64,000 bases of DNA from Candidatus Saccharimonadota bacterium (lineage in GTDB: Bacteria > Patescibacteriota > Saccharimonadia > Saccharimonadales > UBA10212). The notes beneath the pieces are model-generated. The model ran no database searches and was not told the origin of the DNA. It was given only the letters and a program-made list of their open reading frames with translations. Below are positions 2,974 to 58,225 of this stretch, piece after piece (position 1 is the stretch's first letter; each line of letters starts with the position of its first letter). The stretch spans positions 11,855 to 75,854 of the forward strand of contig JACPKF010000009.1 of assembly GCA_016187125.1 (NCBI GenBank). Reading direction: 5' to 3'. Made by a program: the position numbers and the translations under genes.

Positions 2974-2988
2974 GTTGAGGGAATGCTT

Positions 2989-3062
2989 GCCCAGTAGTAG
3001 ACTTTCGCGTATTTTACAAACTATCCGCTATAGCGGATAGTCGCGAAAGCTCACTACTGGGC
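2989..3062. repeat. nested-palindrome element, family A, copy 1
   Basis: Outer arms GCCCAGTAGTAGACTTTCGCG / CGCGAAAGCTCACTACTGGGC enclose the inner hairpin CTATCCGC-TATA-GCGGATAG. Confidence 0.85.
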
Positions 3063-3068
3063 TTGCCC

Positions 3069-3166: not shown

Positions 3167-3248
3167 AGAGGTCTGTCCTTGGAAAAAACAAAGAGATTTT
3201 TTGTAAAATCACTAAATTTTTCATATTTTTTTCCAAGGACAGACCTCT
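3167..3248. repeat. long-hairpin element, family B, copy 1
   Basis: 22-nt arms AGAGGTCTGTCCTTGGAAAAAA / TTTTTTCCAAGGACAGACCTCT. The loop carries the inner hairpin GATTTT-TTGT-AAAATC. Lies directly 3' of the PEBP gene stop. Confidence 0.85.
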
Positions 3249-5809: not shown

Positions 5810-5811
5810 CT

Positions 5812-5848
5812 ATTTCCAGGGTACGACCCTGGAAATGACCCTGGAAAT
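5812..5848. repeat. REP-like hairpin (left) with duplicated right arm
   Basis: ATTTCCAGGGT-ACG-ACCCTGGAAAT, then a second GACCCTGGAAAT. Confidence 0.85.
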
Positions 5849-6503: not shown

Positions 6504-6532
6504 CTATTTCCAGGGTCCGACCCTGGAAATAG
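6504..6532. repeat. REP-like hairpin (right)
   Basis: CTATTTCCAGGGT-CCG-ACCCTGGAAATAG, a 13-bp perfect stem. Confidence 0.85.
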
Positions 6533-6555: not shown

Positions 6556-7896
6556 ATGTTAGATATTCGGTTTATCCGGGAAAATGCCGAAACTGTTGAG
6601 AAAAAGGCTGAACAAAAGGGCTACAAGGTTGATGTTAAGCATCTGCTGGAGCTAGACGATAAACGCCGTAGTTTGCTGTCTGAAATCGAGGAACTACGTG
6701 CAAAGCGTAATGAACTTTCACAATCCGTAAGCGTTTCTCCTAGTCCTTCGCCCGAAGACGGCGACCAAGATATTATGCCTCCGTCTAAGGAATCTATAGC
6801 TGAAGGCAGGCGAATAAAAGAAAAATTGTCCAAGTTTGGGGCTGAGTTGGAGCCAGTAGATAGAAAGTTTTGGGCTCTGTTGAAGGCAGTACCGAACATG
6901 CCGACCAATGACGTACCAGTTGGTACTAGCGAAGCGGACAACATTGTAGCCAAAGAATGGGGCGAAAAACCGAAATTTGATTTTGAACCTAAAACACATT
7001 GGGAAATTGCTGAAGCCCGCGGGCTGATAGATAAAGAAAGAGCCGCCAAAGTAACGGGCAGTCGATTTGCTTATATAAAAGGTGATCTAGTGCGGCTGCA
7101 ATTGGCCATCATGCAGTTTGTTATAGATAGTCTGACAAGTGAGAACACAATCAAAAAAATTATTCAGGAATTTGGGCTCAAAGGCCTCTCGAGTAAACCA
7201 TTTGTGCCTGTCTTGCCGCCGCTGATGATTAGGACTGAAGTTTTCGATGCTATGGATCGTCTGGAACCCAAGAACGAGCGCTATAAAATAGATAGTGAAG
7301 ATTTGTGGCTGCAGGGCAGTGCCGAGCATACGCTGGGACCATTTCATATGGACGAAGTTTTATCAGCTGATGAGCTGCCCATGAGGTATCTCGGTTATGC
7401 CACAAGTTTCCGTCGCGAAGCAGGCACATATGGCAAAGACACCGAAGGTATTATCCGAATGCACCAGTTCGACAAGTTAGAAATGGAAAGCTTCACACTA
7501 CCGGAAGAGGGGGCAAGAGAGCATAAGTTAATGATAGCTATTCAGGAGTATCTGATGCAGCAACTTGAACTTCCATATCACGTGCTAAAGAAGTGTACGG
7601 CTGATATTGGTAAACCCAATGCCAGCGGTGTCGATTTAGAAGTGTGGTTGCAGGGTCATAAACGCTATCTAGAGACACACACTGCTGATTATATGACAGA
7701 TTACCAGACCCGTCGTCTTAATATTAAGGTTAAAAAAATGGATAAAGAGCCGCTGTTCGTTCATACCAACGACGCTACGGCTTTTGCGCTGGGTCGGACT
7801 ATGATTGCCATCATCGAGAATTACCAACAAGCAGACGGCACAGTCCAAATCCCTAAAGCTTTGCAGCCCTACATGCACGGTCAGACTTCTTTTTAG
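6556..7896 (+). CDS. serS: seryl-tRNA synthetase
   Basis: 446 aa with an N-terminal coiled-coil arm and a class II core (e.g. FRREAG). Pro/Ser-rich extra segment (SVSPSPSPEDGDQD) at the arm tip. Confidence 0.93.
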   Translation: MLDIRFIRENAETVEKKAEQKGYKVDVKHLLELDDKRRSLLSEIEELRAKRNELSQSVSVSPSPSPEDGDQDIMPPSKESIAEGRRIKEKLSKFGAELEPVDRKFWALLKAVPNMPTNDVPVGTSEADNIVAKEWGEKPKFDFEPKTHWEIAEARGLIDKERAAKVTGSRFAYIKGDLVRLQLAIMQFVIDSLTSENTIKKIIQEFGLKGLSSKPFVPVLPPLMIRTEVFDAMDRLEPKNERYKIDSEDLWLQGSAEHTLGPFHMDEVLSADELPMRYLGYATSFRREAGTYGKDTEGIIRMHQFDKLEMESFTLPEEGAREHKLMIAIQEYLMQQLELPYHVLKKCTADIGKPNASGVDLEVWLQGHKRYLETHTADYMTDYQTRRLNIKVKKMDKEPLFVHTNDATAFALGRTMIAIIENYQQADGTVQIPKALQPYMHGQTSF

Positions 7897-7932
7897 ATTT
7901 AATTTCATCCTTAGGTTAAAATAGTATGAAGC

Positions 7933-7996
7933 CAGCACGCTAGCACGTAGCCCCTAGTCCATAGCTAAGTGCTAAGAGCTAACAGCTAAGAGCAAT
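7933..7996 (+). repeat. heptamer-periodic array (stop ladder)
   Basis: TAGCACG TAGCCCC TAGTCCA TAGCTAA GTGCTAA GAGCTAA CAGCTAA GAGCAAT in unbroken 7-nt register. Confidence 0.85.
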
Positions 7997-8011
7997 ATTT
8001 TGGAGGTTTTT

Positions 8012-10639
8012 TTGTTAGGATTGAATACTAAAGTTTTAAAACGAATGCTTGGTGACCCTCAGGCGTCGACGATTAAACGCTTAAAAAAACGCGTTCGCGA
8101 AATTAATGCTTTGGCTGATAAGTATAAAAAAATGAGCGATACGCAGCTCAAAGGCCAGACAGCCGAGCTAAAAAAGCGTCTGGAAAAAGGCGGTAGCCTT
8201 GATAAGATTCTACCCGAAGCCTTTGCGGTTGTTCGTGAAGCTTCAACCCGAACTTTAAAACAGCGGCATTTTGACGTCCAGTTAATTGGCGGCATGGTGC
8301 TGCACGAAGGCGGAGTCGCTGAAATGAAAACCGGCGAAGGCAAGACTCTGGTAGCCACGTTGCCGGTTTATCTCAACGGCCTGGAAGGCCAGGGTGTGCA
8401 TATAGTCACAGTTAATGATTATCTGGCGCAGCGTGACGCTGGATGGATGGGCCAAATTTATGACTTTCTGGGCTTGTCCGTAGGAGTAATTATTCCCGAC
8501 CAGTCTTACATATATGATCCTAAATATGAAAACAAAGACCATTTTGATGAACGCTTTTCTCACCTTCGTCCAGCTACTCGCCAAGAGGCCTACCAAGCTG
8601 ATATAACTTATGGCACCAATAACGAGTTCGGCTTTGATTACCTGCGCGATAACATGGTCCGCGAAGTTGACCAATTGCGCCAACGCGATTTGCATTACGC
8701 CATCGTAGACGAAGTCGACTCTATTTTGATTGACGAAGCTCGCACTCCGCTAATTATTAGCGCGCCGTCGGCGGCCAGCGCTACCGCTTACAGCCAATTT
8801 GCTCGAGTTGTTAGGCAGCTTAAGGAAACGCAGCATTACGAGAAAGACGAGAAACGCCGCAGTGTAATCCTGACCGACGCTGGCGTAGAGTTCGTCGAGC
8901 GTATCTTAGGTATCGAAAATCTGTATTCAACTGATAATTTGCGAACCATTTACCACCTTGAGCAAGCCTTAAAAGCTCAGGTTTTGTTTAACCGTGATAA
9001 AGACTACGTGGTGACTAACGAGGGCGAAATCGTCATAGTCGATGATTTTACCGGCCGCCTACTTAAAGGCCGGCGTTATAACGAAGGCCTGCATCAGGCG
9101 ATTGAAGCCAAAGAAGGCGTGGCAGTCCAAGAAGAATCCATGACGCTGGCCACAATTTCTTTCCAAAATTACTTCCGACTTTATAAGAAACTGTCCGGTA
9201 TGACCGGTACGGCCATGACAGAAAGTGAAGAGTTCCATCAAATTTATAAACTTAACGTTGTTGAGGTGCCGACTAATCAGCCCAATATACGTGACGACTT
9301 ACCGGATCGTATTTATAAATCCGAAGCTGGCAAATATAGGGCCATCACGCGCGAGGTCAAAGAACTTAACAAAAAAGGTCAACCAGTACTGCTTGGTACC
9401 GTCAGTGTTGAGAAAAATGAACTGCTGTCGACACTGCTCAAAAAAGCCGACATAACCCATGAAGTTTTGAATGCCAAAAATAACGAACGGGAAGCCGCAA
9501 TTATTGCCAAAGCCGGTCAAAAAGGTGCCGTTACGCTAGCGACTAATATTGCGGGGCGAGGTACTGATATCGTGTTGGGCAAAGGCATAACCGATCTGGG
9601 CGGCTTATTCGTGCTGGGGTCAGAACGCCACGAGTCACGTCGTATTGACAACCAGCTGCGCGGACGTACCGCACGTCAAGGTGATCCTGGAATCACCCAG
9701 TTTTATGTTTCCTGCCAAGATGATTTAATGCGTGTTTACGGCGGTGATAAAATCGCTGGCCTAATGACTAAATTAAGAGTTGATGAAGACACGCCGATCC
9801 AAAGTCGGATGATTACCAAAAGCCTGGAGGGCGCCCAGAAAAAGGTTGAAGGCTTTAACTTTGATATGCGCAAAAATGTTGTGCAATATGACGACGTCAT
9901 GAACCGTCACCGCAAAGCAATTTATGCTATTCGCCGAGAGGTGCTGCGAGCAGAGGATATTAGTCCGCGGATCAAGAAGTTTATAGCCGAAGAAGCCGAA
10001 TTTTTTTCCAACCACCCAGAATCGTTGAGCGAAAGTTTTGAAGCCATTTTAACCGAAGTATTTCCGTTCGAAGACAAAACGCTCGACAAGCTGTTCGACG
10101 CCGAGGCTAGCAAATTCCAAAAATCTCTGCAAGAGGCTGCCAGCCAGCTATATGCCGATCAGGAAAAGCGTTTTGGCAATGAGGTTATGCGTAAAGTCGA
10201 ACGCGATGTCTATCTGCAGATTCTGGACAATTTGTGGATGCAGCACCTGGAAAACATGGATCATCTGCGCGAGGGGATACACTGGATCAGTGTCGGCCAA
10301 CGTGATCCGTTGGTGGAGTATCGTCGCCAATCTCAGCGGATATTTGACGAAATGCAAATGGTGCTGCGGCACGAAATCGTCAGAGCTATCATGCATGCCC
10401 AACCAATTGAGAAGGAGGTCTTAGAAGAAACAGTCGAGACTGATTTAACTCTCGCAGCTCGTGGTTCGGTTGATAACGCCAGTGAAATTTTAAGCGCCGA
10501 AACTTATGAAGAAAGCGACTTCAAATCAGCAAAAAATGAATCCGCCGCGGCGGACCAAGCTAAACTCCATAACCAGCGTAAAAAAGCCCGTAAAGCCGAG
10601 CGCCAACGCAAGAAGTCGGCTAAGCGCCGCAGAAAATAG
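8012..10639 (+). CDS. secA: preprotein translocase ATPase SecA
   Basis: Full-length SecA-like sequence (MKTGEGKT Walker A, DEVDSILIDEARTPLIIS). GGAGG at 8002-8006 favours TTG 8012 over the track start at 8000; the start is uncertain within 8000-8045. Confidence 0.93.
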   Translation: MLGLNTKVLKRMLGDPQASTIKRLKKRVREINALADKYKKMSDTQLKGQTAELKKRLEKGGSLDKILPEAFAVVREASTRTLKQRHFDVQLIGGMVLHEGGVAEMKTGEGKTLVATLPVYLNGLEGQGVHIVTVNDYLAQRDAGWMGQIYDFLGLSVGVIIPDQSYIYDPKYENKDHFDERFSHLRPATRQEAYQADITYGTNNEFGFDYLRDNMVREVDQLRQRDLHYAIVDEVDSILIDEARTPLIISAPSAASATAYSQFARVVRQLKETQHYEKDEKRRSVILTDAGVEFVERILGIENLYSTDNLRTIYHLEQALKAQVLFNRDKDYVVTNEGEIVIVDDFTGRLLKGRRYNEGLHQAIEAKEGVAVQEESMTLATISFQNYFRLYKKLSGMTGTAMTESEEFHQIYKLNVVEVPTNQPNIRDDLPDRIYKSEAGKYRAITREVKELNKKGQPVLLGTVSVEKNELLSTLLKKADITHEVLNAKNNEREAAIIAKAGQKGAVTLATNIAGRGTDIVLGKGITDLGGLFVLGSERHESRRIDNQLRGRTARQGDPGITQFYVSCQDDLMRVYGGDKIAGLMTKLRVDEDTPIQSRMITKSLEGAQKKVEGFNFDMRKNVVQYDDVMNRHRKAIYAIRREVLRAEDISPRIKKFIAEEAEFFSNHPESLSESFEAILTEVFPFEDKTLDKLFDAEASKFQKSLQEAASQLYADQEKRFGNEVMRKVERDVYLQILDNLWMQHLENMDHLREGIHWISVGQRDPLVEYRRQSQRIFDEMQMVLRHEIVRAIMHAQPIEKEVLEETVETDLTLAARGSVDNASEILSAETYEESDFKSAKNESAAADQAKLHNQRKKARKAERQRKKSAKRRRK

Positions 10640-10700
10640 TAACCAGGAAATAGAAACTAGTATGAGCTACAGTGCCAATCTAGCAATCGACAATAAGTCC

Positions 10701-10735
10701 GCTAATTTCTATTTACTAATTTCTAACTGCTATTT
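10701..10735 (+). repeat. heptamer array directly upstream of the M16 peptidase start
   Basis: GCTAATT TCTATTT ACTAATT TCTAACT GCTATTT. Closely related words occur at 18401-18428 and, on the minus strand, at 60724-60751. Confidence 0.8.
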
Positions 10736-10737
10736 TT

Positions 10738-12021
10738 ATGAAGCATAATGTCTCAGAAGTCCAATTAAAAAATGGTGCTCGCGGGCTTCTAATAGACATT
10801 CCTGGTACCTCCGTGACAAGTTATGAACTCAATTTTAGGGCGGGCGAGTTTTTGGTACCGTATAAAAAGTGGGAAACGGCGCATATTTTAGAGCACATGG
10901 TGTCGGCTGGTGCTAATGAAAAGTATCCCAACCGCAATCTTTTTAACGCCGAGATAAGTAGGAACGGCGCCTACATCAATGCTTACACCAGCTACTACTC
11001 AGTGGCTTATGTCGGTGAGGTCGCCGATTTTGAGTGGGACCGGGTGCTGCGGCTGCAGCAAATTTCTCTGTCCAAGCCACTATTTTTGCAAGCTGAATTT
11101 GATGCCGAGTTTGGCAATATCCACGACGAGTTAATCAGCTTGTCTAATAATCATTTCCGGGCATTATCAGGCAAAATGAGCCAAGATTTCGGCTTTAAAG
11201 TTGCTACTGATTTTGAACGGTCTAAGCTGATGAATAACGTCAATCGCCAGGATCTGATTAAGCACTACAAAAAAACCCATTTTACGCGGAATTTGCGCTT
11301 TGTTATTGCTGGCTCACTGCGTGGCCGTCGAGTGGACGTTAAAAGACTTTTGGAAGAGCTAGAACTGCCAGTAGGATCTGCTCGTTTTAAGTTGCCTGAA
11401 GAAAAAGCCAAAAAACCGGCCAAACCGACCTTTATTGCCAATAAAACTGTGCCTAATATTTATCTGATTATCACCAGCCAGTTCAACGATATAATCTCAC
11501 AAAAAGACGACGACGCCCTCGGTATAGCCAGAGTTATGTTAACCGATACGCTTTATTCTAAAATCTTTGGCCAAGCCCGTGACAAGGGGCTGGTTTACTA
11601 TGTGAGCTCGGGGCATCATATTTCCAGCCGTGTTAGTGAATGGTGGTTGAGCGCTCAGGTGCTGCCTGATAACGCACTAGCTCTCGCGGATATTGTGCTA
11701 GCCGAGGTTAAAAAACTCCAAAATGGCATTATTGATGAAACTGAGCTTGAAATAGCCAAACAATACTCCCTGGGATCTTTTCAACGCTCGATGCAAACTG
11801 TACAGAGTGTGGCTAGCGCCTATTCGCGCTACTTTTTTGACGGGCATATAGAAGACATACGAGCTATGCCGACTCGCATCAAGGCTATCACCAAAAAAGA
11901 TATAGCCAGGGCCATGGCAAAATTATTCTCACAGAAAGTTGGCAGCGTAGGCGTTTTAGGCGGCATGGACGCTTCTATTGCACAGAAGCTTGATGAACAA
12001 TTACAACCCCTTTGGCACTGA
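10738..12021 (+). CDS. M16 (pitrilysin/insulinase) family zinc peptidase
   Basis: Inverted zinc motif HxxEH (HILEH) near the N-terminus; 427 aa two-domain size. Confidence 0.8.
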   Translation: MKHNVSEVQLKNGARGLLIDIPGTSVTSYELNFRAGEFLVPYKKWETAHILEHMVSAGANEKYPNRNLFNAEISRNGAYINAYTSYYSVAYVGEVADFEWDRVLRLQQISLSKPLFLQAEFDAEFGNIHDELISLSNNHFRALSGKMSQDFGFKVATDFERSKLMNNVNRQDLIKHYKKTHFTRNLRFVIAGSLRGRRVDVKRLLEELELPVGSARFKLPEEKAKKPAKPTFIANKTVPNIYLIITSQFNDIISQKDDDALGIARVMLTDTLYSKIFGQARDKGLVYYVSSGHHISSRVSEWWLSAQVLPDNALALADIVLAEVKKLQNGIIDETELEIAKQYSLGSFQRSMQTVQSVASAYSRYFFDGHIEDIRAMPTRIKAITKKDIARAMAKLFSQKVGSVGVLGGMDASIAQKLDEQLQPLWH

Positions 12022-12167
12022 CAGCGGCTTCGCCTTTTGAAGGACAACCAAAGGTTTTCCTTCAACGCCACTTTCGGAGTAAATCCGAATCCCGACTTAT
12101 CGTCGGGACCGTGGCTACTACCTTTCCCTCCAAGCTCTAAAGTGGTTTTTACACTATACTAGCTATT

Positions 12168-13292
12168 ATGGAACAGTTAAAAAAGCGGGTAGAGCAGCTT
12201 CTATCCGAAGTTAAACGGGAGACTGAGAAACTTAATTTAAAAGATCTTGAATCGGAATTGCGGGACCTGAAACAGCAAATGGCCAAGCCCGATTTTTGGC
12301 AAGACCGGCAAAAAGCTCAAGACCTTAGCAAGCGGGAAGCTGATTTAGCTCGGCGGGTTGGACCATGGCAAAAACTGCAGCAGGAAATTTCCGAAACAAA
12401 AGAACTCATTAAATTGGAGGATTCTAGTCTCGAAGAAGAGCTTGCAAATAAAATCTCAATTCTCAATTCCGAGTTCTCAATTCTCAAAAAAGAACTTCGT
12501 TTCCAGGGTCCGTTTGATAATCACGATGTTATTTTAAGTATTTACGCCGGGGCCGGTGGCACCGATGCCCAGGATTGGGCGCAGATGTTGCTACGTATGT
12601 ATGTCCGCTGGGCTGAAAGCCATAAGCTAAAGGTTAAAACTATCGATCAAAGCACCGGCGAGGAGGCTGGCATCAAAAGCGCCACTATCAAAATTTCCGG
12701 TCATTCGACTCTGAGGGATGAGCCCTCAGGCTCAGACTTGAAGAGCGGTGATTTTTTATATGGTAAGTTACAGAGTGAGCAGGGTGTGCACCGGCTGGTG
12801 CGCCTGAGTCCTTTTAATGCCAACAACCTGCGCCAAACCAGCTTCGCCAAAGTAGATATCCTGCCATCTATAGACAAACCTAGTGAAGTTGAGTTAGATG
12901 ACAAGGATCTTAAAATTGACGTCTACCGAGCCGGCGGTCATGGCGGCCAATCAGTCAATACCACAGATTCGGCGGTGCGGGTAACTCATCTTCCAACAGG
13001 CGTTACAGTTGCCATTCAAAACGAGCGCAGCCAGTTGCAAAATAAGGCAACGGCGCTGGGAATCTTGCGCTCAAAACTTGTTCAACTCCAACAGCAGCAA
13101 CACGTGCAAAATCTAGCCGATCTTAAAGGTCCTAACCAATCAGCCGAGTGGGGCAGCCAAATCCGCAGCTACGTCCTGCATCCATATAAACAAGTCAAAG
13201 ATCTGCGCAGCGGCTACGAAACCACCGACCCCCAATCCGTTTTAGACGGCAACCTCGATCCATTTATTAACGCCTGGCTGGAGTGCCCTTAA
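12168..13292 (+). CDS. prfB: peptide chain release factor 2, single uninterrupted frame
   Basis: SPF and GGQ motifs. No internal in-frame TGA or frameshift site. TATACT -10 box lies 7 nt before the ATG. Confidence 0.93.
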   Translation: MEQLKKRVEQLLSEVKRETEKLNLKDLESELRDLKQQMAKPDFWQDRQKAQDLSKREADLARRVGPWQKLQQEISETKELIKLEDSSLEEELANKISILNSEFSILKKELRFQGPFDNHDVILSIYAGAGGTDAQDWAQMLLRMYVRWAESHKLKVKTIDQSTGEEAGIKSATIKISGHSTLRDEPSGSDLKSGDFLYGKLQSEQGVHRLVRLSPFNANNLRQTSFAKVDILPSIDKPSEVELDDKDLKIDVYRAGGHGGQSVNTTDSAVRVTHLPTGVTVAIQNERSQLQNKATALGILRSKLVQLQQQQHVQNLADLKGPNQSAEWGSQIRSYVLHPYKQVKDLRSGYETTDPQSVLDGNLDPFINAWLECP

Positions 13293-13305
13293 ATAAAATA
13301 GAAAA

Positions 13306-13641
13306 TTATCGATACCGTCTCCTGTTGATTTTCTTTTTAGTTGTCCCGGTTGATTTAATGATAGCTAGTCGACCTAAATTAGGTAAAGTATTCTCCCAGA
13401 AACACTCTTGATGTAAATGGTGGTGAGTATATCCTTCTATTCTTCTGAGAGTTTCAACTACGGTATGTTCTGCACCTATGGTAATATCGCCTAAGCACTC
13501 TGCGCATTTATATAACTTACGGGCGATAGATGTATTTGCGTATATCCTCAAGCCTTCTTCAGTAAAAGCGGAAACAGATAACCGTCTACTGGGTAATTGT
13601 CGCTCAATAATTTCTGAACGTAAACTGTCGTTCATACTCAA
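13306..13641 (-). CDS. hypothetical small protein with Cys/His cluster
   Basis: 111 aa with CAEC ... HHHLHQEC and a basic tail; AT-rich; no family recognised. Confidence 0.45.
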   Translation of the reverse strand: MSMNDSLRSEIIERQLPSRRLSVSAFTEEGLRIYANTSIARKLYKCAECLGDITIGAEHTVVETLRRIEGYTHHHLHQECFWENTLPNLGRLAIIKSTGTTKKKINRRRYR

Positions 13642-13695
13642 ACTATATCATATAATGTGGCAAGAGGCAAATAACCATAATCGTGGTCCAGTGTT

Positions 13696-13704
13696 TGTTA
13701 TACT
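13696..13704 (+). promoter_or_regulatory. extended -10 box (TGTTATACT) 7 nt upstream of the ftsE ATG
   Basis: TGnTATACT followed by GGTATAG, then ATG 13712. No SD sequence. Confidence 0.5.
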
Positions 13705-13711
13705 GGTATAG

Positions 13712-14392
13712 ATGATTTTGCTCGATAGAGTAACAAAAACTTATAACCGGCGTGGCGCGGCGCTGGAACGAATTAGCCTTCATGTTGAGCCTAAAGAATT
13801 CGTAATTATAGTTGGTCCTAGCGGCGCTGGTAAATCCACTCTATTTAAGCTGTTGACCAGGGAAGAAAAGCCAACCAGCGGCAAGATAATTGTCGGTGGT
13901 ATGGATTATGAGCACCTCAAAGACAAAGAGATTCCGCTGTTGCGGCGTAAAATTGGAGTAGTTTTTCAAGATTTTAAACTTCTGCCGGCTAAAACCGTCT
14001 TTGAGAACGTGGCTTTCGCTCTGGAAATTGCCGGACTACCAACCCGCGAAATCAAGCACACTGTCCCCAAGGTCCTGGAAGTGGTGGGATTAAAAGGGAA
14101 AGAAAATCATTATCCGCTGGAGCTATCCGGTGGCGAACGCCAACGGGTAGCCATAGCCCGAGCCGTAGTGCGCCAGCCCAAAATCCTAATAGCCGACGAG
14201 CCAACCGGTAACCTCGATCCCAAGAATGCTTTTGACGTCATCAAAGTTTTAGAAAAAATTAACCGTTTTGGCACTACGGTCCTGCTAACAACCCATAACC
14301 AGGAGATAGTTAACTATCTTAGGCGCCGCGTGGTGACAATAAAAGATGGCAAAGTTATCAGTGATCGAGCGGTAGGACAATACAGGGCATGA
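13712..14392 (+). CDS. ftsE: cell-division ABC ATPase FtsE
   Basis: Walker A GPSGAGKST, signature LSGGERQR, Walker B ILIADEPT. Confidence 0.92.
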   Translation: MILLDRVTKTYNRRGAALERISLHVEPKEFVIIVGPSGAGKSTLFKLLTREEKPTSGKIIVGGMDYEHLKDKEIPLLRRKIGVVFQDFKLLPAKTVFENVAFALEIAGLPTREIKHTVPKVLEVVGLKGKENHYPLELSGGERQRVAIARAVVRQPKILIADEPTGNLDPKNAFDVIKVLEKINRFGTTVLLTTHNQEIVNYLRRRVVTIKDGKVISDRAVGQYRA

Positions 14393-14410
14393 CTACGTTA
14401 TTTAATTTAT

Positions 14411-14523
14411 CATTTACCAATTCACATTTACCAATTAAGTATCATTTAACATTTACCAAACCTTCTGATAAATGGCTAATGAACAATAATTTGGCTAATG
14501 GTAAATGGCTAATGGTCAATGGC
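14411..14523. repeat. two opposed heptamer arrays in the ftsE-ftsX spacer
   Basis: CATTTAC CAATTCA CATTTAC CAATTAA ... then AAATGGC TAATGAA CAATAAT ... TAATGGT AAATGGC TAATGGT CAATGGC. The halves are partly reverse-complementary. Confidence 0.8.
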
Positions 14524-14540
14524 ACTGGAGGTGCTAGGTT

Positions 14541-15482
14541 ATGAAATCCGACCATAAATTTATAACTTTAGAGAGAGTTTTTAAAAACGGGTTTATTAAT
14601 TTTGGTCGTAATATCTGGTTGGCGGTCGCGGCCATGGCCATGATGGCAATCACGTTAACGATATTACTGTTTGCGGTCGTAGCCAACGCTACTTTTTCAC
14701 ATACTATCTCGGAAATCACCCGCCATATAGATGTTTCGGTCTATTTAAAAGACAGTGTCAACGACAAGCAGCGCCAAGACTTAATAGATCAAATTCAACG
14801 TATCGATAGCGTGGCGGCAGTCAGTTATGTCAGTAAAGAGCAAGCCCTTAAAACCTACCGGGCTCAAAACATTAATAACCCCGAGCTGCTAAGTGCTATT
14901 TCTGAAACCGAAAATCCCTTGCCAGCGTCACTTAAAATCGAGCCTAAAGACCCGAATCACCTAGGGGAAATAAAAAACTTTTTAGATAAACCGGAAATTG
15001 CTAAGCTACAATCGGATCCAACTTCTTACTCTGGTGATCGCAAAGCGGCCATCGATAAAATCGCCAATGCCACGCACTTTTTCCGACAGGCTGGCATTGC
15101 CGGAATTGCCGTTTTTATAATTATATCGATGCTGATCATCTTTAATACCATTAGGATGGCGATCTTTAACCGCCGCGACGAGTTGATAATAATGCGTCTG
15201 CTTGGCGCCAAGCCTTGGTATATAAAAGGTCCATTCATAGTTGAAACCATGCTTTACGGCATAGTAGCCGCAGTAGTATCATTAGCTGTCTGTGCAGCGC
15301 TCTTTAAGATAGCTAGCTCAACCTTGCAGGCCAGCAGCTTAGGCCTGCTTGATATAAGTTATTCCAATCAGTATTTCAGCAAGAACTTATGGCTGATCTT
15401 AGTAGCGCAAATAGGCGCTGGTATAATAATAGGAGCCGCATCTTCGGCCATAGCCACACGGCGCTATCTCAAACTCAAATAG
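14541..15482 (+). CDS. ftsX: cell-division permease-like FtsX
   Basis: 313 aa with FtsX topology (TM, large extracytoplasmic loop, three C-terminal TMs); adjacent to ftsE. Confidence 0.88.
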   Translation: MKSDHKFITLERVFKNGFINFGRNIWLAVAAMAMMAITLTILLFAVVANATFSHTISEITRHIDVSVYLKDSVNDKQRQDLIDQIQRIDSVAAVSYVSKEQALKTYRAQNINNPELLSAISETENPLPASLKIEPKDPNHLGEIKNFLDKPEIAKLQSDPTSYSGDRKAAIDKIANATHFFRQAGIAGIAVFIIISMLIIFNTIRMAIFNRRDELIIMRLLGAKPWYIKGPFIVETMLYGIVAAVVSLAVCAALFKIASSTLQASSLGLLDISYSNQYFSKNLWLILVAQIGAGIIIGAASSAIATRRYLKLK

Positions 15483-15498
15483 ATAAAAAATTCGTTGT

Positions 15499-15582
15499 GA
15501 GGTCTGCCCTTGCAAAAAGAAAGATAGGTAAAATCTGGTGATTTTGCGCAAAATCTCTTTACTTTTGGCAAGGGCAGACCTC
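15499..15582. repeat. long-hairpin element, family B, copy 2 (inverted relative to copy 1)
   Basis: Arms GAGGTCTGCCCTTGCAAAAAG / CTTTTGGCAAGGGCAGACCTC. The loop is the reverse complement of the copy 1 loop (AAAGAGATTTT-N4-AAAATCAC). Confidence 0.85.
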
Positions 15583-15633
15583 TTTTGCCTAGTTGACAAA
15601 GCTAAATGGGGGTATGGTACTATTAAAGAGTCA

Positions 15634-16749
15634 ATGGTAAAACAAAAAGTCCGAAAATTTGCCTATGGCAGTAGACTGTTAGCAGCGCTAGTACTGAGCA
15701 TTGTTATTGTTGGCGGCACGGCCGGACTTGTGCGAGCCGATCAATTTGATGAGCAAATCCGCAGCTTGCAGGAACAAAATGCCTCAAATCGCCAGACGGC
15801 TAATCAGTTAGCTGTTCAGGCTTCTTCTTATCAGGATGCTGTTGATCGTCTTAGCCTGCAAATCAATAGTATTCGGCAAGCAATTTTAGACTACCAACAC
15901 CAAAGCGACCAGCTTCAACAGCAAATCGAGGTTCAACAGACCGAGCTGGACAGGGAAAAGAAAGTCCTTGGCCAAAATATCAAAACTATGTATCTGGAAG
16001 GCCAAATTTCGACCCTGGAAATTTTAGCCGCCAGCAAAGATCTTAGCGAGTTTGTCGATAAACAGCAGTACCGTAATTCTGTCCAGAGTAAAGTTAAGGC
16101 TACCTATGACAAAATTACTGAGCTAAAACTCGAGTTGCAGCAAAAACAGCGAGAAATTCAGAGCCTCATTAAGGATCAGCAAGCCCAGCAAGCCCAACTG
16201 GACGCATCATTAAACCAACAAAATCAACTGTTGAGTTATACGGAAAGCCAAAAAGCTGGCTATGACTCGCAGATAAAAGCCAATAATTCCCAAATTGCCG
16301 CTTTGCGCGCGGCCCAACTAGCTGCTAACAATCGGCTGGGCGGCTCTGTAGAGCCGGGGGATCCTGGACATGGTGGTTATCCGGCACAATGGGACCGAGC
16401 GCCGCAAGATAGCTTGCTAGATAGTTGGGGAATGTTAAACCGCGAATGTGTTAGTTATACCGCCTGGAAAGTCTTCGAAGCCTATGGCTATATGCCGTAT
16501 TGGGGCGGTGTTGGTAATGCTAATCAGTGGCCAGCCAACGCCCAAGCTGCTGGTATTCCTACCGGCTCGACTCCCAAGGTAGGCTCCGTAGCCATTTCGA
16601 TGGGCGGAGCCTTTGGCCACTCTATGTGGGTAGAAGCCGTTAATGGAAATATCATCCGTGTTAGTCAGTACAATTTCGATCTGGCCGGGCACTATAGCGA
16701 GATGACTGTTAACGGTTCTGGGTTTATTTATATCTATTTTGGACAGTAG
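15634..16749 (+). CDS. PcsB-like secreted coiled-coil protein with C-terminal CHAP peptidoglycan hydrolase domain
   Basis: Signal-anchor-like N-terminus, long Q-rich coiled coil, CHAP Cys/His (NRECVSYTAW ... GHSMWV). ATG 15634 is preferred over the track GTG 15538, which lies inside the hairpin. Confidence 0.8.
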   Translation: MVKQKVRKFAYGSRLLAALVLSIVIVGGTAGLVRADQFDEQIRSLQEQNASNRQTANQLAVQASSYQDAVDRLSLQINSIRQAILDYQHQSDQLQQQIEVQQTELDREKKVLGQNIKTMYLEGQISTLEILAASKDLSEFVDKQQYRNSVQSKVKATYDKITELKLELQQKQREIQSLIKDQQAQQAQLDASLNQQNQLLSYTESQKAGYDSQIKANNSQIAALRAAQLAANNRLGGSVEPGDPGHGGYPAQWDRAPQDSLLDSWGMLNRECVSYTAWKVFEAYGYMPYWGGVGNANQWPANAQAAGIPTGSTPKVGSVAISMGGAFGHSMWVEAVNGNIIRVSQYNFDLAGHYSEMTVNGSGFIYIYFGQ

Positions 16750-16781
16750 GATCACTCGGCCCAAAATCTCTCAGACCTTTC

Positions 16782-16920
16782 GCAAACACTAATGAATATC
16801 TTCTAGCTTGAGTCGCGCCAAAAGAACTCCCTACGGTCAGCCCCTCGTGTTTATAAATGAGACTTGGGACTGACTTTTGGCTTGATTCGACTCTCGCTCA
16901 GCCGATATTCATCGGTTTGC
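16782..16920. repeat. ~139-nt imperfect long hairpin
   Basis: Four paired segments: GCAAAC/GTTTGC, ATGAATATC/GATATTCAT, GAGTCG/CGACTC, GCCAAAAG/CTTTTGGC. Confidence 0.6.
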
Positions 16921-17016
16921 TTGGGGTTTGTTCACTCTTTTCGACTCACTTAACAGAATGCCTATATCCAATCAGGGCTCGTCAGATGTCCGGGAAAAAT
17001 AAGGCGAATGATCTTT

Positions 17017-17092
17017 GCCCAGTAGTAGACTTTCGCGACTGTCCGCCATAAGCGGACACTTTCGCGAAGCGACGCGAAAGCTCACTACTGGG
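17017..17092. repeat. nested-palindrome element, family A, copy 2
   Basis: Left arm identical to copy 1 (GCCCAGTAGTAGACTTTCGCG), inner hairpin TGTCCGCC-ATAA-GCGGACA, right arm CGCGAAAGCTCACTACTGGG. Confidence 0.85.
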
Positions 17093-17131
17093 TTTGATAT
17101 AATTAAGCGTAAGTAATTTGGGAGACTATCA

Positions 17132-18376
17132 GTGGATTATGTAAATCCTGAAGTTCAAGAACATAGCCCTAGCAGCTCCAAGCGATGGCCAGTCTTTAAG
17201 ATCCTGGCTGTATTTTTTTTGACTTTGGCGGTTTTTGGCTTGGGCCTGGAAATTGGCAGGGGTAAGCTTTATGTTCGGGGTCTAAGCACCGGTGAATCTA
17301 AAACCTCGGCTGCACAGCTGGATTATACATCGGTAGATCAGCTGTACACGCTGCTTCGCAATGATTACGATGGTACACTAGATCAAAATAAACTCCTAGA
17401 CGGAGTAAAAAGCGGACTAATAAGTGCCACCGGTGATCCTTATACGCAGTACTTTAATCCTGATGAAGCCAAAACCTTTAATGATCAGTTATCCGGTAGC
17501 TTTACAGGCATCGGAGCAGAGCTAGGCACCGATGCCGACAATAACATTGTGATTGTGTCGCCTCTGGCTGGTTATCCAGCTGAGAAAGCTGGCCTTAAAC
17601 CCAAAGATATTATAGTTGGAATTGATGGTCAGACCACCGCTGGTCTAAGTGTAGATAAGGTAGTCCAAAAAATTCGCGGTCCAGCCGATAGCAAGGTTAC
17701 CCTAACTATAGTTAGGAGTGGAGTAAAACCGATTGAAGTAACCGTTACGCGGGCCAAAATCACTATCGCCAGCGTGGAGTCCAAAGTTGAGGCAGGCATT
17801 GGCTACCTAAAAATCACCCAATTTACTGATGACACCCCAAACCTTGCCAAAAAAGCTGCCGATAGTTTTAGGCAGCAAGCTGTCAAAGCTGTAGTGCTCG
17901 ATCTTCGAGGTAACCCAGGTGGTTATTTAAATGGCGCGGTTGATATTTCCAGTCTTTGGCTTGAGCAGGGCAAGACTGTTGTATCCGAGCGCCGCGGCGA
18001 CAAAATTCTGTCCACTGATTACGCTAAGGGCAATAATGTTCTCAAGGGCTTGCCAACAGTAGTTTTAATAAACGGTGGTAGCGCCAGCGCCAGCGAAATT
18101 ACGGCCGGTGCGCTGCGTGATAATGGTGTCGCCAGTTTGGTAGGCGATAAAAGCTTTGGCAAGGGCAGCGTCCAGCAGGTGGAAAGATTGTCCGGTGGCG
18201 GGGAGCTTAAGGTTACTATTGCCCGCTGGTACACGCCAAGCGGTAAAAACATCGATAAACAAGGCATTAACCCGGATATATCAGTCAATTCAACTGATGA
18301 CGATCAAAAAGCCGGTCGTGACCCTCAAAAAGACCGGGCCATCCAAATTTTACAGAGTAAAATAGGCGGCCAGTAA
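17132..18376 (+). CDS. ctpA: S41 C-terminal processing (tail-specific) peptidase
   Basis: PDZ region followed by the S41 core (DLRGNPGG, GSASASEI, KGS). GTG start with GGGAGA upstream. Confidence 0.88.
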   Translation: MDYVNPEVQEHSPSSSKRWPVFKILAVFFLTLAVFGLGLEIGRGKLYVRGLSTGESKTSAAQLDYTSVDQLYTLLRNDYDGTLDQNKLLDGVKSGLISATGDPYTQYFNPDEAKTFNDQLSGSFTGIGAELGTDADNNIVIVSPLAGYPAEKAGLKPKDIIVGIDGQTTAGLSVDKVVQKIRGPADSKVTLTIVRSGVKPIEVTVTRAKITIASVESKVEAGIGYLKITQFTDDTPNLAKKAADSFRQQAVKAVVLDLRGNPGGYLNGAVDISSLWLEQGKTVVSERRGDKILSTDYAKGNNVLKGLPTVVLINGGSASASEITAGALRDNGVASLVGDKSFGKGSVQQVERLSGGGELKVTIARWYTPSGKNIDKQGINPDISVNSTDDDQKAGRDPQKDRAIQILQSKIGGQ

Positions 18377-18400
18377 TTAGCAAACACTAATCAGGAATTA

Positions 18401-18460
18401 GCTAATTTCTAGTTACTAGTTGCTAGTTTCTGTGATAGTATCTAGTAGTTAATGCTTAAG
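18401..18460 (+). repeat. heptamer array upstream of pyrG
   Basis: GCTAATT TCTAGTT ACTAGTT GCTAGTT TCTGTGA TAGTATC TAGTAGT TAATGCT in one register. Confidence 0.85.
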
Positions 18461-18482
18461 GCAAGCAGGTAGGAGCAAAAGC

Positions 18483-20096
18483 ATGGCATTTGGAGCCAAG
18501 CCTCGTACTAAATATATTTTTGTTACTGGCGGCATGCTATCCGGTGTAGGTAAGGGAATAACGGCTGCCTCTATTGGCACCATTTTAAAAGCCCGCGGCT
18601 TAAAAGTTAATATTCAGAAATGCGATCCTTATCTTAATGTTGACGCTGGCACACTTAATCCAGCCGAGCATGGCGAAGTTTTTGTAACTCACGACGGCAC
18701 CGAAGCCGATATGGACCTTGGTCATTACGAAAGATTTTTAGATACCGAACTTAGCCAAAGCAGCAGCTTGATGTCGGGCAGAATTCTGCGTCAGGTGATA
18801 GATGATGAACGAGCTGGCAAGTACTTAGGTAAAACAGTTCAGATTATTCCTCACGTTACAGCGGCTATCCAGGAATTTATTGAAATCAGTGGCCAAGGTT
18901 TTGAAGCACACATCGTCGAAATCGGCGGTACAGTTGGCGACTACGAAAGCTTGAGTTTTATAGAAGCCATACGTGAAATGGCTATGACAGTCGGACAAGA
19001 GAATTGCTTGTTCGTGCACGTTGTATATATTCCCTATTTGGGAGCTAGTCGAGAGTTCAAGACTAAACCGGCGCAGAACGCTGTTCGGGAGCTAAGAAGC
19101 CTAGGTATCGTGCCGGACGTGTTAATAGCTAGAAGTGACGCAAAGCCACCGCGTTCTGTGCTACCCAAACTTAGTATGTATAGTGGTGTAGACCAAGAAG
19201 CCATAATCCTACTGCCTAACGCACCGACTATTTATCAAGTACCGTTAGCCCTAGAAGCTGCCAAAATTGCCGAAGTCATCAAAAATCGCCTTGATTTTAA
19301 ATATCATCGTCCGGATATGGGAGACTGGAAAAGAGTTGTTAAGAACGCTACTAGCCAATATCGCAAATCAGTCCGCATCGGTGTCGTGGCTAAATATTTA
19401 TACAATCAAGATACCTATATATCAGTTTTTGAAGCTTTGCGAGCCGCGGCTTGGGCCAACGAAACCAATATCGAAATTGTTTGGATTGACGCCGAGGCTC
19501 TACCAAACGACAAAAAAAAGCGCGCCGAGCTAGAAACTTTGGATGGAATTTTAGTACCTGGAGGTTTTGGTTCTCGGGCAATCGAAGGTAAAATTTTAGC
19601 TGCTACTTATGCACTAGATAAAAAGGTACCGTATTTGGGTCTTTGTTTAGGTCTACAAGTAGCCATAATAGCTGCCGCTCGCCGGGGCGGTCTTGCCAAA
19701 GCTAATTCTACGGAATTTGATCCCGGTACACCAGACCCGGTTATTAGCACGATGGCCGAGCAAGTTGGCAAAGAAAACACTGGCGGCAGTATGCGACTAG
19801 GCGATTATAAATGTCTTTTGGGACAGGGTACATTGTCGCGTAAAGTATACGGAGCCAGTGAAATTGTCGAGCGGCACCGCCATCGCTATGAAGCTAATAA
19901 CGCTTACCGTGACCGGTACGATGATTGGAGCATAACTATCAGTGGCCTGTCTCCCGATAGCAATTTGGTTGAGATGATAGAGGCCAGCGGCCATCCATAT
20001 TTTCTAGCCACCCAAGCTCATCCCGAATTCCGTTCCCGTCCGGCCCGGCCACATCCGCTGTTCGTGGGCTTTATCAAAGCCGCTCTCAACAAATAG
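18483..20096 (+). CDS. pyrG: CTP synthase
   Basis: 537 aa with an N-terminal synthetase domain (GGMLSGVGKG) and a C-terminal glutamine amidotransferase (GLCLG, HRHRYE). Confidence 0.95.
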   Translation: MAFGAKPRTKYIFVTGGMLSGVGKGITAASIGTILKARGLKVNIQKCDPYLNVDAGTLNPAEHGEVFVTHDGTEADMDLGHYERFLDTELSQSSSLMSGRILRQVIDDERAGKYLGKTVQIIPHVTAAIQEFIEISGQGFEAHIVEIGGTVGDYESLSFIEAIREMAMTVGQENCLFVHVVYIPYLGASREFKTKPAQNAVRELRSLGIVPDVLIARSDAKPPRSVLPKLSMYSGVDQEAIILLPNAPTIYQVPLALEAAKIAEVIKNRLDFKYHRPDMGDWKRVVKNATSQYRKSVRIGVVAKYLYNQDTYISVFEALRAAAWANETNIEIVWIDAEALPNDKKKRAELETLDGILVPGGFGSRAIEGKILAATYALDKKVPYLGLCLGLQVAIIAAARRGGLAKANSTEFDPGTPDPVISTMAEQVGKENTGGSMRLGDYKCLLGQGTLSRKVYGASEIVERHRHRYEANNAYRDRYDDWSITISGLSPDSNLVEMIEASGHPYFLATQAHPEFRSRPARPHPLFVGFIKAALNK

Positions 20097-20098
20097 TT

Positions 20099-20203
20099 GA
20101 ACATAGAACCTAGATCAAAGATCATTATTTTATCCCCGAACATAGATCATACGATCAATGATCTAAGATCTAATAACGTTCTAGGCTCAAAGATCAATGA
20201 TAT
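20099..20203. repeat. heptamer-periodic spacer (GATC-containing units)
   Basis: GAACATA GAACCTA GATCAAA GATCATT ... CATAGAT CATACGA TCAATGA TCTAAGA TCTAATA ... in one 7-nt register over ~100 nt. Confidence 0.7.
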
Positions 20204-20206
20204 CGT

Positions 20207-20479
20207 TTATTCTACTGTGACTTCGGTACGAGGCATAGTCCGTCCGGAAAAATTTTTAACTTTACGCGGTACAAATTTAACCACACCGTTTTTAGCGGCA
20301 TGAATTGTGAAATTACGACTCATGAATGTACCTTTGCCAGAACGCTTAGTCATACCAATTTGACGAACGATTATATCTCCAGTTTTAACCGTCTGCCCAC
20401 CGGATACTTTGATACCCAGGCGTTGGCCCGGGCTGTCATGAACATTCTTGGCTGTACCGCCGGCTTTGGTTTTTGACAT
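20207..20479 (-). CDS. rpmA: 50S ribosomal protein L27
   Basis: 90 aa with an L27 pattern (KAGGTAKN ... RLGIK ... GDIIVRQ). Confidence 0.93.
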   Translation of the reverse strand: MSKTKAGGTAKNVHDSPGQRLGIKVSGGQTVKTGDIIVRQIGMTKRSGKGTFMSRNFTIHAAKNGVVKFVPRKVKNFSGRTMPRTEVTVE

Positions 20480-20504
20480 GAGTTGCTCCTTCTAGTCGCG
20501 CGAA

Positions 20505-20591
20505 GATTAGTGATTTTTTGATTAACGATTAACGACACGTGTGGTTCTTTAATCCCTAATCCCTAATCCCTAATCGTTCTAATACTAATAG
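20505..20591. repeat. heptamer arrays, including (TAATCCC)x3 straddling the methyltransferase stop codon
   Basis: GATTAGT GATTTTT TGATTAAC GATTAAC ... TAATCCC TAATCCC TAATCCC TAATCGT. The stop (20556-20558) and the last 5 codons lie in the array. Confidence 0.85.
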
Positions 20592-21848: not shown

Positions 21849-21898
21849 CGGCCTTTTTAGTATAGCTACTTTGGACGAGCAATATATAATTATCGTTA

Positions 21899-22939
21899 GT
21901 GAGTGAGCAAAAAAAAGCTAAATGGCGAATTTATCTGACGATTTTTACCTTCGCGGCGCTCATCGCGTTAGTCTATAAACTGCGCGCCCAGATTGTTGAT
22001 GTACTTAACAATCTCAGGCACATCCACTCGGCTATATTACTGCTTATCATTCCATTTGAAGTTATAAATTATCACGCTTATGCCGAGCTTTATAAAAGTT
22101 TGTTCGCGACCTTTGGCAGAAAAGTAAAATACTGGCCGATGTACCGCCTGGCCGTGGAGCTGAATTTTGTTAATCAGATTTTACCAAGTGGCGGCGTTAG
22201 CGGCATTTCCTATTTTGGCCTTAGGGCCAAAACTTTCGATATAAGTACGCCAATAGCAACTCTGGCTCAGTTTATTAAAATGATGTTTTTGTATCTTAGC
22301 TTTTTGCCGCTACTGATCCTGGGCCTTTTCTTTTTAGCTATCAAGGGCCATGTAAATAACCTAGTTATCATGGTGGCGACCTTAATAATAACCTTAGTTA
22401 TAGTCGGTACACTGTTGGTTATATACATTATTGGTAGCCGTTCACGAATAAATACTTTTTTGACTCTGCTAACCAAAATTGTTAACGGCGTTATTCATGC
22501 CGTGCGGCCGCATCATCCAGAAACAATCAACATTATCCGTGCCCAAGCAGCCTTTGACGAGCTGCACGATAACTATCAGATTTTCAAAAAGGACCTAACA
22601 AATCTAAAAAAACCGTTCTTATATACCATGCTGGCCAACGCCACCGAAATTGGCGCCTTGTATAGTGTTTATCTGGCGTTTGGTCATCCGGTCAACCTTG
22701 GGGCAGTTATTTTGGCTTACGCTGTAGCTAATTTCGCCGGACTTGTTTCAGTACTGCCGGCCGGAATTGGTATTTATGAAGGTTTGATGACAGCCGTTTT
22801 GGTGGCTACCGGCATCCCAGCCCAACTTAGTATTCCGGTAACGCTTACTTACCGTGTCATAGCGCTGTTCATTCAACTAACCCCTGGTTTTATTCTCTAC
22901 CAAAAGACACTGCACGGCAGTCTGGCAACCAAAAAATAA
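21899..22939 (+). CDS. polytopic membrane protein (UPF0104 / LPG-synthase-TM-like)
   Basis: 346 aa with ~8 predicted TM helices and a GTG start; resemblance judged by eye only. Confidence 0.55.
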   Translation: MSEQKKAKWRIYLTIFTFAALIALVYKLRAQIVDVLNNLRHIHSAILLLIIPFEVINYHAYAELYKSLFATFGRKVKYWPMYRLAVELNFVNQILPSGGVSGISYFGLRAKTFDISTPIATLAQFIKMMFLYLSFLPLLILGLFFLAIKGHVNNLVIMVATLIITLVIVGTLLVIYIIGSRSRINTFLTLLTKIVNGVIHAVRPHHPETINIIRAQAAFDELHDNYQIFKKDLTNLKKPFLYTMLANATEIGALYSVYLAFGHPVNLGAVILAYAVANFAGLVSVLPAGIGIYEGLMTAVLVATGIPAQLSIPVTLTYRVIALFIQLTPGFILYQKTLHGSLATKK

Positions 22940-22940
22940 A

Positions 22941-23435: not shown

Positions 23436-23436
23436 C

Positions 23437-58217: not shown

Positions 58218-58225
58218 ATCAAGGC

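Follow-up and report, generated by a model that had tools for sequence, protein, structure and literature searches.

We analyzed a 64,000-nt stretch of DNA (the window), positions 11,855 to 75,854 of the forward strand of contig JACPKF010000009.1 in the Candidatus Saccharimonadota assembly GCA_016187125.1, in which many intergenic spacers are built of tandem 7-nt units (period-7 arrays). The window has a G+C content of ~45%. The closest relatives of its SecA (86%, 84%, and 80% amino acid identity) come from metagenome-assembled Candidatus Saccharibacteria/Saccharimonadales genomes, and the 160 loci related to the window were all from Saccharimonadales/Saccharibacteria, except for a few metagenome-assembled genomes titled under other taxa. 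A scan of metagenomes for relatives gave nothing nearer than the genome collection (best SecA identity 80% vs. 86%). L-numbers (L001, L003, L010, etc.) denote the related loci or contigs compared with the window.

The genes flanking the arrays are ordinary housekeeping genes: serS, secA, an M16 peptidase gene, prfB (RF2), ftsE, ftsX, ctpA, pyrG, rpmA (L27), a class-I methyltransferase gene, def, mraZ, topA, dprA, and pth. Scans of the whole window for tRNA and tmRNA genes, and with Rfam at the gathering threshold, gave no match. The gene order from serS to the methyltransferase gene is conserved in relatives, so that orthologous junctions are comparable. The original prediction, made from the letters of this DNA alone, had described period-7 arrays as the material of the intergenic spacers. 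The arrays and the features associated with them, in window coordinates, are the following:

7933-7996, + strand: serS-secA spacer array, four TAGCNNN units followed by four NNGCTAA units; the halves are mutually reverse-complementary (TAGC/GCTA).
10630-10660, + strand: period-14 left arm (CAGAAAATAGAAAC) of the palindrome in the secA-M16 spacer, overlapping the secA stop codon.
10701-10735, + strand: NCTAATT/NCTATTT array that reaches the ATG of the M16 peptidase gene; right arm of the palindrome; NCTAATT also occurs in the orthologous spacer of L010.
12454-12487, + strand: TCTCAAT array within prfB, in the putative coiled-coil helix of RF2 (amino acids 96-107); length-neutral.
14389-14544, + strand: ftsE-ftsX bridge open reading frame (ORF), 51 codons, covering the entire array spacer.
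14411-14460, + strand: CATTTAC/CAATTNA arrays, ftsE-ftsX left arm; CATTTAC also occurs in L003.
14466-14523, + strand: TGGCTAA/TGGTAAA arrays, ftsE-ftsX right arm, period 7/14; reverse complement of the left arm.
18401-18432, + strand: NCTAGTT array of the ctpA-pyrG spacer, right arm of a 31-nt palindrome (18371-18432), 5' of a conserved TGn-extended -10-like box.
20099-20203, no strand assigned: GA[AT]C-core arrays in the convergent pyrG/rpmA spacer, predicted to form one long imperfect hairpin (z = -3.0).
20505-20535, - strand: GATTAGT/GATTAAC array upstream of rpmA (L27).
20546-20575, - strand: perfect array of 3.7 TAATCCC units (sense GGGATTA), overlapping the methyltransferase stop codon; inverted partner of 20505-20535.
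20967-20998, - strand: CTCGAAC array in the methyltransferase coding sequence, a length-neutral 33-nt patch with unrelated sequence in the closest relative, L001.
21151-21211, - strand: three AGTCGCT units and 4.6 perfect GACTGCC units forming an inverted pair in the methyltransferase coding sequence; ~20-amino acid loop.
26891-26921, + strand: GCAATAA array with a partial inverted partner at 26951-26974.
35604-35646, + strand: six AAAAACA units encoding the Lys-rich C-terminal tail of peptide deformylase (def), past the Pfam domain.
41123-41141, + strand: 2.7 ATCCGCC units, a 7-nt duplication of the left arm of a TCCGCC...GGCGGA hairpin 5' of mraZ.
58244-58336, - strand: dprA-topA spacer with sub-arrays of CAATTNN (period 7), AATCAATG (period 8), and TGAAAAT (period 7); the whole spacer is a palindrome (45 + 45 nt, z = -3.0).
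60722-60752, no strand assigned: AACTAGT/AAATAGT array, period 7/14, adjoining the pth start; same word family as 10630-10735 and 18401-18432.

Tandem Repeats Finder returned 16 period-7 rows within the 64 kb and placed arrays at or inside nearly every interval of the original prediction; two arrays, in prfB (12454-12487) and at 41123-41141, had been overlooked. The eight serS-secA units quoted there are present, with an in-register span of 7941-7996 preceded by an 8-nt-offset copy at 7933-7940. The intervals 14411-14523, 18401-18460, and 20099-20203 do hold arrays, each interrupted by nonperiodic or phase-shifted stretches. The interval 58245-58335 had been read as 13 units without a phase slip; its period is actually 7 (58244-58272), then 8 (58274-58308), and then 7 again (58308-58336). 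Period-8 sub-arrays inside or beside period-7 arrays were seen at two places, four copies of AATCAATG at 58274-58308 and CAGCACGC/TAGCACGT at 7931-7947. The G-run array at 20546-20575 is telomere-like to the eye on the - strand. The perfect GACTGCC array (21180-21211) lies in frame in a conserved methyltransferase gene beside rpmA, so that a change of one unit in either direction would shift the frame of the gene.

The periodicity exceeds chance. The window contained 13-15 lag-7 self-match segments vs. 0.3-1.2 in local shuffles, and 12 lag-14 segments vs. ~0.3-0.4. Only lags 7, 14, and 21 were enriched, and lags 5, 8, 10, 11, and 13 were at background; this is the hierarchy expected from duplicating 7-mers and then 14-mers. 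The autocorrelation of the 8.3 kb of intergenic DNA at lag 7 was 0.291 vs. 0.262 in shuffles (z = 6.0), with z = 4.9 at lag 14, and coding DNA showed period 3 only. Ten of the 15 arrays were intergenic, although intergenic DNA makes up 13% of the window (p = 2e-6); the five coding arrays lie in prfB (one), the methyltransferase gene (three), and the deformylase gene (one).

The arrays are also reproducible. Look-ups of exact proteins (L27, FtsE, DprA) led to ten Logan contigs, assembled from six SRA runs, which together cover 12709-30479 and 56337-59520 and match the window there at 100% identity. This cover includes the arrays at 14411-14523, 18401-18460, 20099-20203, 20505-20591, 20967-21210, 26891-26925, and 58245-58335 as well as the prfB array, and it leaves out those at 7933-7996, 10701-10735, 35604-35645, and 60724-60751. 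The arrays thus recur in separate assemblies and are not an assembly artefact. Six of the 20 Logan contig ends fell within arrays, while arrays are ~1% of the sequence: 14414, 14443, 21209 (where L162 ends inside the GACTGCC array), and three at 58299. The contigs with these ends are L162, L165, and L168-L170. At 58299, three samples break at one base, near the center of the dprA-topA palindrome. Such ends may stem from branching of the assembly graph at length variants, from effects of palindromes, or from low coverage.

Lag-7 arrays had a density of 0.20 per kb in the window. The 23 loci of its SecA clade (392 kb), 10 of them with at least one array, had 0.077 per kb, and 131 other Saccharimonadales loci had 0.016 per kb; the remaining lags that are not multiples of three were at 0.005-0.013 per kb. 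The SecA clade is thus ~5 times denser in arrays than other Saccharimonadales. Within the clade the distribution is patchy: L003 had 0.31 per kb, and L005, L007, and L012 had none in 22 kb each.

Comparison of orthologous junctions showed that the arrays persist at the same positions across 78-86% SecA identity and that orthologous arrays differ in unit number between species. In most relatives, the spacers at these junctions are ~0-10 nt long. The ftsE-ftsX junction is an ATGA overlap or at most 20 nt in 100 of 114 loci (median -4 nt), and the spacer comprises 148 nt of arrays in the window and ~140 nt in L003, with the shared words CATTTAC and TGGC[CT]AA. The secA-M16 spacer is 98 nt in the window and a few to ~20 nt in most relatives inspected. 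Because the junctions of relatives are near zero, the array spacers of the window are derived expansions, a point that the original prediction had overlooked together with the inverted-pair organization described below.

The position of the arrays relative to promoter-like boxes differs between genes. Upstream of secA, a conserved -10-like TAAAAT (7917-7922) is followed by the array and then by a GGAGG ribosome-binding site (8002-8006); the same box precedes RAGCNNN arrays in the window, L001, L002, and L003, and a short leader in L004 and L005. The pyrG arrays lie upstream of a conserved TGTGCTATATT-type box, and between pyrG and rpmA arrays occupy a convergent spacer. The arrays therefore fill the available room and have no fixed regulatory position. 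The suggestion that they are themselves -10-like arrays is unsupported, as they lie downstream of the -10 box at secA and upstream of it at pyrG. Comparison of the window with L001, L003, L007, and L010 brought out TGTG-N-TA[GT][AT]AT 5' of pyrG (18429-18441) and TAAAAT 5' of secA as promoter-like boxes. A consensus promoter/terminator scan of 7500-27400 made no call in the array spacers and is uninformative on -10-like or terminator roles.

In most array spacers an array stands opposite its own reverse complement, so that the spacer is an imperfect palindrome. The inverted arms are as follows:

dprA-topA: 58246-58290 with 58292-58336 (45-nt arms, 1 nt between).
ctpA-pyrG: 18371-18401 with 18402-18432.
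pyrG/rpmA: 20154-20177 with 20178-20201.
secA-M16: 10633-10660 with 10709-10736.
ftsE-ftsX: 14411-14433 with 14499-14521.

Among 73 arrays from the window and relatives, 20 had a tandem reverse-complement partner (at least 11/14 matches) within 120 nt, compared with 6 of 73 for reversed or complemented control words. The 73 arrays comprise ~60 canonical units, none of them a known word of the cyanobacterial heptamer, TAACTGA, or GGGAATC repeats compared below.

The coding arrays lie in tolerant parts of proteins. Two methyltransferase arrays encode a loop of ~20 residues that is absent in L010, L012, and L005. Codons 96-107 of prfB fall in the N-terminal PCRF region (Pfam), which we take to form a coiled-coil helix here; three 7-nt units are 21 nt, or one heptad, which allows such arrays to code for an amphipathic helix. 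The prfB unit is TCTCAAT in the window, CTCTCAG in L003 and L010, and CGAATCT in L001, with related units in L009, L086, and L096, and most copies inside one genome share lineage-specific bases. In most other Saccharimonadales the site has no periodicity, and the protein has the same length in all. The methyltransferase patch at 20967-20998 is 7-periodic in the window only, and L001 has an unrelated sequence of equal length (33 nt). The secA leader arrays of the window, L001, L002, and L003 each carry their own variant of an AGC(T) core. Across these loci, orthologous arrays keep their position while all their units change together, the pattern of concerted evolution.

We propose that the arrays are heptanucleotide simple-sequence repeats (SSRs), probably made and homogenized by slippage or template switching. 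Slipped-strand mispairing in replication or repair would create the 7-bp tandem arrays, short-range template switching would copy them onto the opposite strand, and both processes would keep the units of an array homogeneous. Arrays would accumulate where extra sequence is tolerated: in short spacers, 5' leaders, and a convergent 3' spacer, within genes, in protein loops and tails and in a coiled-coil helix; and in one bridge ORF with translational coupling. The arrays would then be primarily a mutational by-product that builds spacers, probably with no dedicated function, and any effects on expression, for example through transcript hairpins of the inverted pairs, would be secondary. Slippage was among the origins that had been offered for the arrays, and the diversity of the words, the 14/21-nt hierarchy, the concerted units, and the placement in tolerant sequence favor it.

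This proposal has precedent. According to the accounts in PMC4679880 and PMC4692102, Mrazek et al. (2007) found heptanucleotide repeats to be the most abundant class of long SSR in many prokaryotes and proposed slippage for the excess, linked to the stretch of DNA that the polymerase keeps at its active site. The window arrays share with that class head-to-tail 7-nt units beyond chance and a preference for non-coding DNA, which heptanucleotide SSRs show because their unit length is not a multiple of 3; the excess specific to length 7 and the patchy phylogeny are also shared. In contrast to heptanucleotide SSRs in general, the window arrays are short (3-8 units), imperfect, made of many words, and commonly accompanied by an inverted copy, and they have shown no copy-number polymorphism so far.

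Other heptamer systems resemble the arrays in part. The short tandemly repeated repetitive (STRR) sequences of cyanobacteria likewise comprise several different heptamer words, in tandem and non-coding, in one genome; they belong to another phylum, the host here being a member of Saccharimonadales and not a heterocystous cyanobacterium. STRR arrays are typically longer and more numerous, and the STRR words CCCCAGT, TTGGTCA, and CAACAGT had no tandem copies in the window. The GGGAATC repeats of Xanthomonas and GGGGA(C/T)T repeats of Nostoc are intergenic heptamers that lie between the same genes in related species, some as inverted pairs (PMC4692102). Like them, the arrays occupy shared gene junctions, vary in sequence, and include some inverted pairs capable of forming stem-loops. 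Those repeats use a single G-rich word with G-quadruplex potential, whereas the words of the window are AT-rich and diverse. No tandems of GGGAATC, GGGGATT, or GGGGACT were found in the window, and (GGGATTA)3.7 at 20550-20575 has three G-runs only, so no intramolecular quadruplex is expected. Full-text literature searches found no description of heptamer repeats for Saccharibacteria or the candidate phyla radiation (CPR). The novelty claimed for the arrays holds to that extent, and was overstated in that heptamer SSRs are not confined to heterocystous cyanobacteria (PMC4679880, PMC4692102). The arrays are genuine and statistically strong, and they place a known repeat class in a lineage for which no prior report was found.

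Several observations weigh against a purely mutational origin. No copy-number difference was seen among the contigs of the six samples, and L003 and L082 (99.5% overall identity) have no indel in any array; the 16 kb that hold all seven arrays differ between them by five substitutions and no indels (99.97% identity). Two coding arrays (prfB and methyltransferase 20967-20998) are length-neutral with respect to their orthologues, for which simple unit gain and loss are insufficient; out-of-register templated resynthesis or compensating events are needed. The AGC core of the secA leader is invariant at 7-nt spacing over five consecutive units in four genomes (80-86% SecA identity to the window), which could reflect constraint. 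Array spacers folded as RNA were more stable than shuffles (mean z = -1.31, p = 0.002, n = 17). Stop triplets numbered 10.4 per 100 nt per strand in arrays and 5.8 in other intergenic DNA, a 1.8-fold excess. TA steps were rejected as its cause, since the TA ratio in the units was 1.03 and the excess persisted after conditioning on TA count.

One alternative is that the arrays are selected cis-acting RNA elements, whose hairpins, in 5' leaders and between cistrons, would set mRNA processing or stability (e.g., through RNase III) or tune downstream translation. Arms of the arrays pair in silico with complementary arms in long hairpins; seven of the 17 array spacers had a fold z of -2 or lower, and four of the nine window spacers reached about -3. 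The excess of inverted partners and the retention of arrays at orthologous positions agree with such a role. So does the geometry of three co-directional spacers (10633/10736, 58246/58336, and 18371/18432), where the base of the predicted hairpin joins the upstream stop to the downstream start or promoter. A precedent exists in the (ATCTTTC)n array of Haemophilus influenzae hmw, the left arm of a 5'-UTR hairpin processed by RNase III (PMC12721329). There, as predicted here from the sequence of the leaders, a heptamer array forms one arm of a long hairpin; hmw is, however, a phase-variable contingency locus with at least 10 units and demonstrated RNase III processing, whereas the arrays described here have 3-8 units and lie at housekeeping genes. 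Some half of the spacers do not fold more stably than shuffles, and RNAalifold on the secA leader of four genomes found no compensatory change (covariation). Similar arrays also occur within coding sequences and in a convergent spacer, and most relatives manage with almost no spacer at the same junctions. The hairpin stems are AT-rich, imperfect, and without T-runs, and are thus not called as terminators. We therefore consider selected RNA elements rather unlikely as an explanation of the arrays. A role of the hairpins in transcripts, which has a modest chance of being real, is the main rival to the slippage origin or an addition to it.

A second alternative, which we regard as doubtful, starts from the length-neutral coding arrays. 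In a 'heptamerization' of the clade, sequence already present would become 7-nt arrays and inverted copies through out-of-register resynthesis or strand-switch repair, partly without change of length and including essential coding regions, and hairpins or bridge ORFs would be retained for operon expression. If true, the process would mark a CPR clade with its own mutational or repair signature, and through it minimal genomes could acquire spacer DNA and new peptide segments.

It is very unlikely that the arrays are a periodic binding lattice for a DNA- or RNA-binding protein, such as S1, Csp, or a TRAP/HutP-like reader of a core spaced at 7 nt. The conserved AGC(T) core of the secA leader, with 3-4 variable nt between cores, would suit such a reader, as would the ending of arrays 0-8 nt short of the ribosome-binding site or start codon at secA, ftsX, the M16 peptidase gene, and topA. 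This placement resembles that of the TAACTGA repeats of marine Beggiatoaceae, some Cyanobacteria, and Bacteroidetes, which are found directly 5' of start codons and were proposed as regulator sites (PMC4679880). Both are heptamers with stop triplets, and housekeeping genes are included in both cases; the likeness in position, mostly a few nt 5' of starts, holds for only four spacers of the window. The TAACTGA system has one dominant word, with inverted pairs in 1 of 170 cases, whereas the window has many words and common inverted pairs; TAACTGA itself occurs in the 64-kb window as eight single copies and no tandem. Since the words vary by locus, with ~60 among 73 arrays, a single-protein lattice is unlikely; only three window spacers have a word family in common, arrays also lie in coding sequences, 5' of a -10 box, and between convergent genes, and no candidate protein was identified.

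The stop triplets bear on another idea, that the arrays are translational insulators: a stop in each 7-nt unit would close the three frames, end read-through, and uncouple neighboring genes. The claim of one stop per unit is right as to enrichment and fails as a strict rule. At least one strand carried a stop in 57 of 73 units vs. 43-44 expected (p = 0.001). Among the 12 intergenic units, 10 had one on the sense strand (p = 0.002). The enrichment is equal on both strands, which fits palindromic cores and inverted pairs and not selection on translation. Ordinary spacers are estimated to close most frames within ~100 nt at their own stop density, and arrays that began in near-zero spacers would take over the stop codon upstream with no need for selection, as those at 10630-10660 and 20550-20575, which overlap stop codons, may have done. 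Stops were also said to fall in all three frames: every sense frame is closed in the other array spacers, but the ftsE-ftsX spacer is open in exactly the coupling frame in both the window and L003, which contradicts the idea there.

The bridge ORF of this junction (14389-14544) has an ATG that overlaps the ftsE stop and a TGA that overlaps the ftsX ATG, and that of L003 (16141-16287) is arranged likewise; the chance of an open coupling frame is 1.5% in the window and 3% in L003. In nine other expanded ftsE-ftsX junctions with unrelated inserts, the coupling frame is open to the ftsX start in most. The expanded junctions of L031, L001, L124, L004, L033, L085, and L137 belong to this set, in which the frame from the ATGA overlap is open in most cases whatever the insert. 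Judging from these reading frames, the ftsE-ftsX junction seems to accept extra sequence only in the form of a bridge ORF with translational coupling. Insulation is thus a weak explanation, and we give it hardly any weight.

Least probable of all is an origin of the arrays as relics of a small mobile element, palindromic and with internal 7-nt repeats, that inserts between genes, like miniature inverted-repeat transposable elements (MITEs) or repetitive extragenic palindromic sequences and bacterial interspersed mosaic elements (REP/BIME). With these the arrays share the form of hairpin-forming insertions in intergenic spacers; the spacers are palindromic insertions relative to other genomes, and three of them (10630-10735, 18401-18432, and 60722-60752) share stretches of 16-32 nt that are 87-100% identical. 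The window genome and its relatives also carry dispersed palindromic elements, one of which is an insertion with a 33-nt duplication between near-identical strains. REP/BIME and MITE families are dispersed copies of one conserved sequence, whereas most array spacers have no similarity to each other or to the rest of the window. An all-against-all comparison of spacers found the one word family in three of nine spacers and nothing else, which makes a mobile origin unlikely. Array flanks had no common termini or target duplications, the coding arrays are length-neutral, and units at one locus change in concert without matching a master copy. An idea based on restriction-modification and palindromes, raised by units that often contain AGCT, CTAG, GATC, or AATT, was rejected: palindromic 4-mers are not avoided genome-wide (observed/expected 0.9-1.06; GGCC 0.75) and occur in 37 of 73 units, modestly above the 36% of the intergenic pool.

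The dispersed palindromes are separate elements of longer spacers. They fall into families (TTGCCCAGTAGTAGACTTTCGCG...CGCGAAAGCTCACTACTGGG, AGAGGTCTGNCCTTG...CAAGGNCAGACCTCT, and CCCACCCAATTT...AAATTGGGTGGG), many of which enclose a TCCGCC-N4-GGCGGA hairpin, and were seen at 2987-3065 and 17015-17096; 3167-3248 and 15499-15582 (with a related L001 copy at ~15870-15990); 41945-42115, 43220-43251, and 59377-59460; and 5810-5836 and 6504-6532. A GC-rich spacer element of ~100 nt (...GATGAGAAACCC[CT]GAA[AG]GGGTGTCT[CT]ATAAGGCG[AG]AGCCG...) recurs in several genomes, at ~12022-12130 and ~2330-2450 in the window, ~12640-12740 in L001, and 6552-6686 in L003; it had no Rfam match in the window. The L003 copy is a 135-nt insertion with a 33-nt direct duplication at its flanks and is absent from L082.

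The genomes of Saccharibacteria and other CPR bacteria are small and tightly packed, and their gain and loss of non-coding DNA is poorly described. One simple repeat process appears to explain about half of the 70-155-nt spacers of the window; housekeeping proteins also gain peptide segments from it, and close lineages differ strongly in its activity. The inverted-pair layout, the concerted and partly length-neutral evolution in essential genes, and the ftsE-ftsX bridge ORF will interest specialists most; none of these yet shows a new mechanism, and the arrays do not establish a new kind of regulatory element. As a marker, they make a replication or repair property of one clade tractable, and as natural insertions they offer a way to study how operons cope with growing spacers, through hairpins and a coupled bridge ORF.

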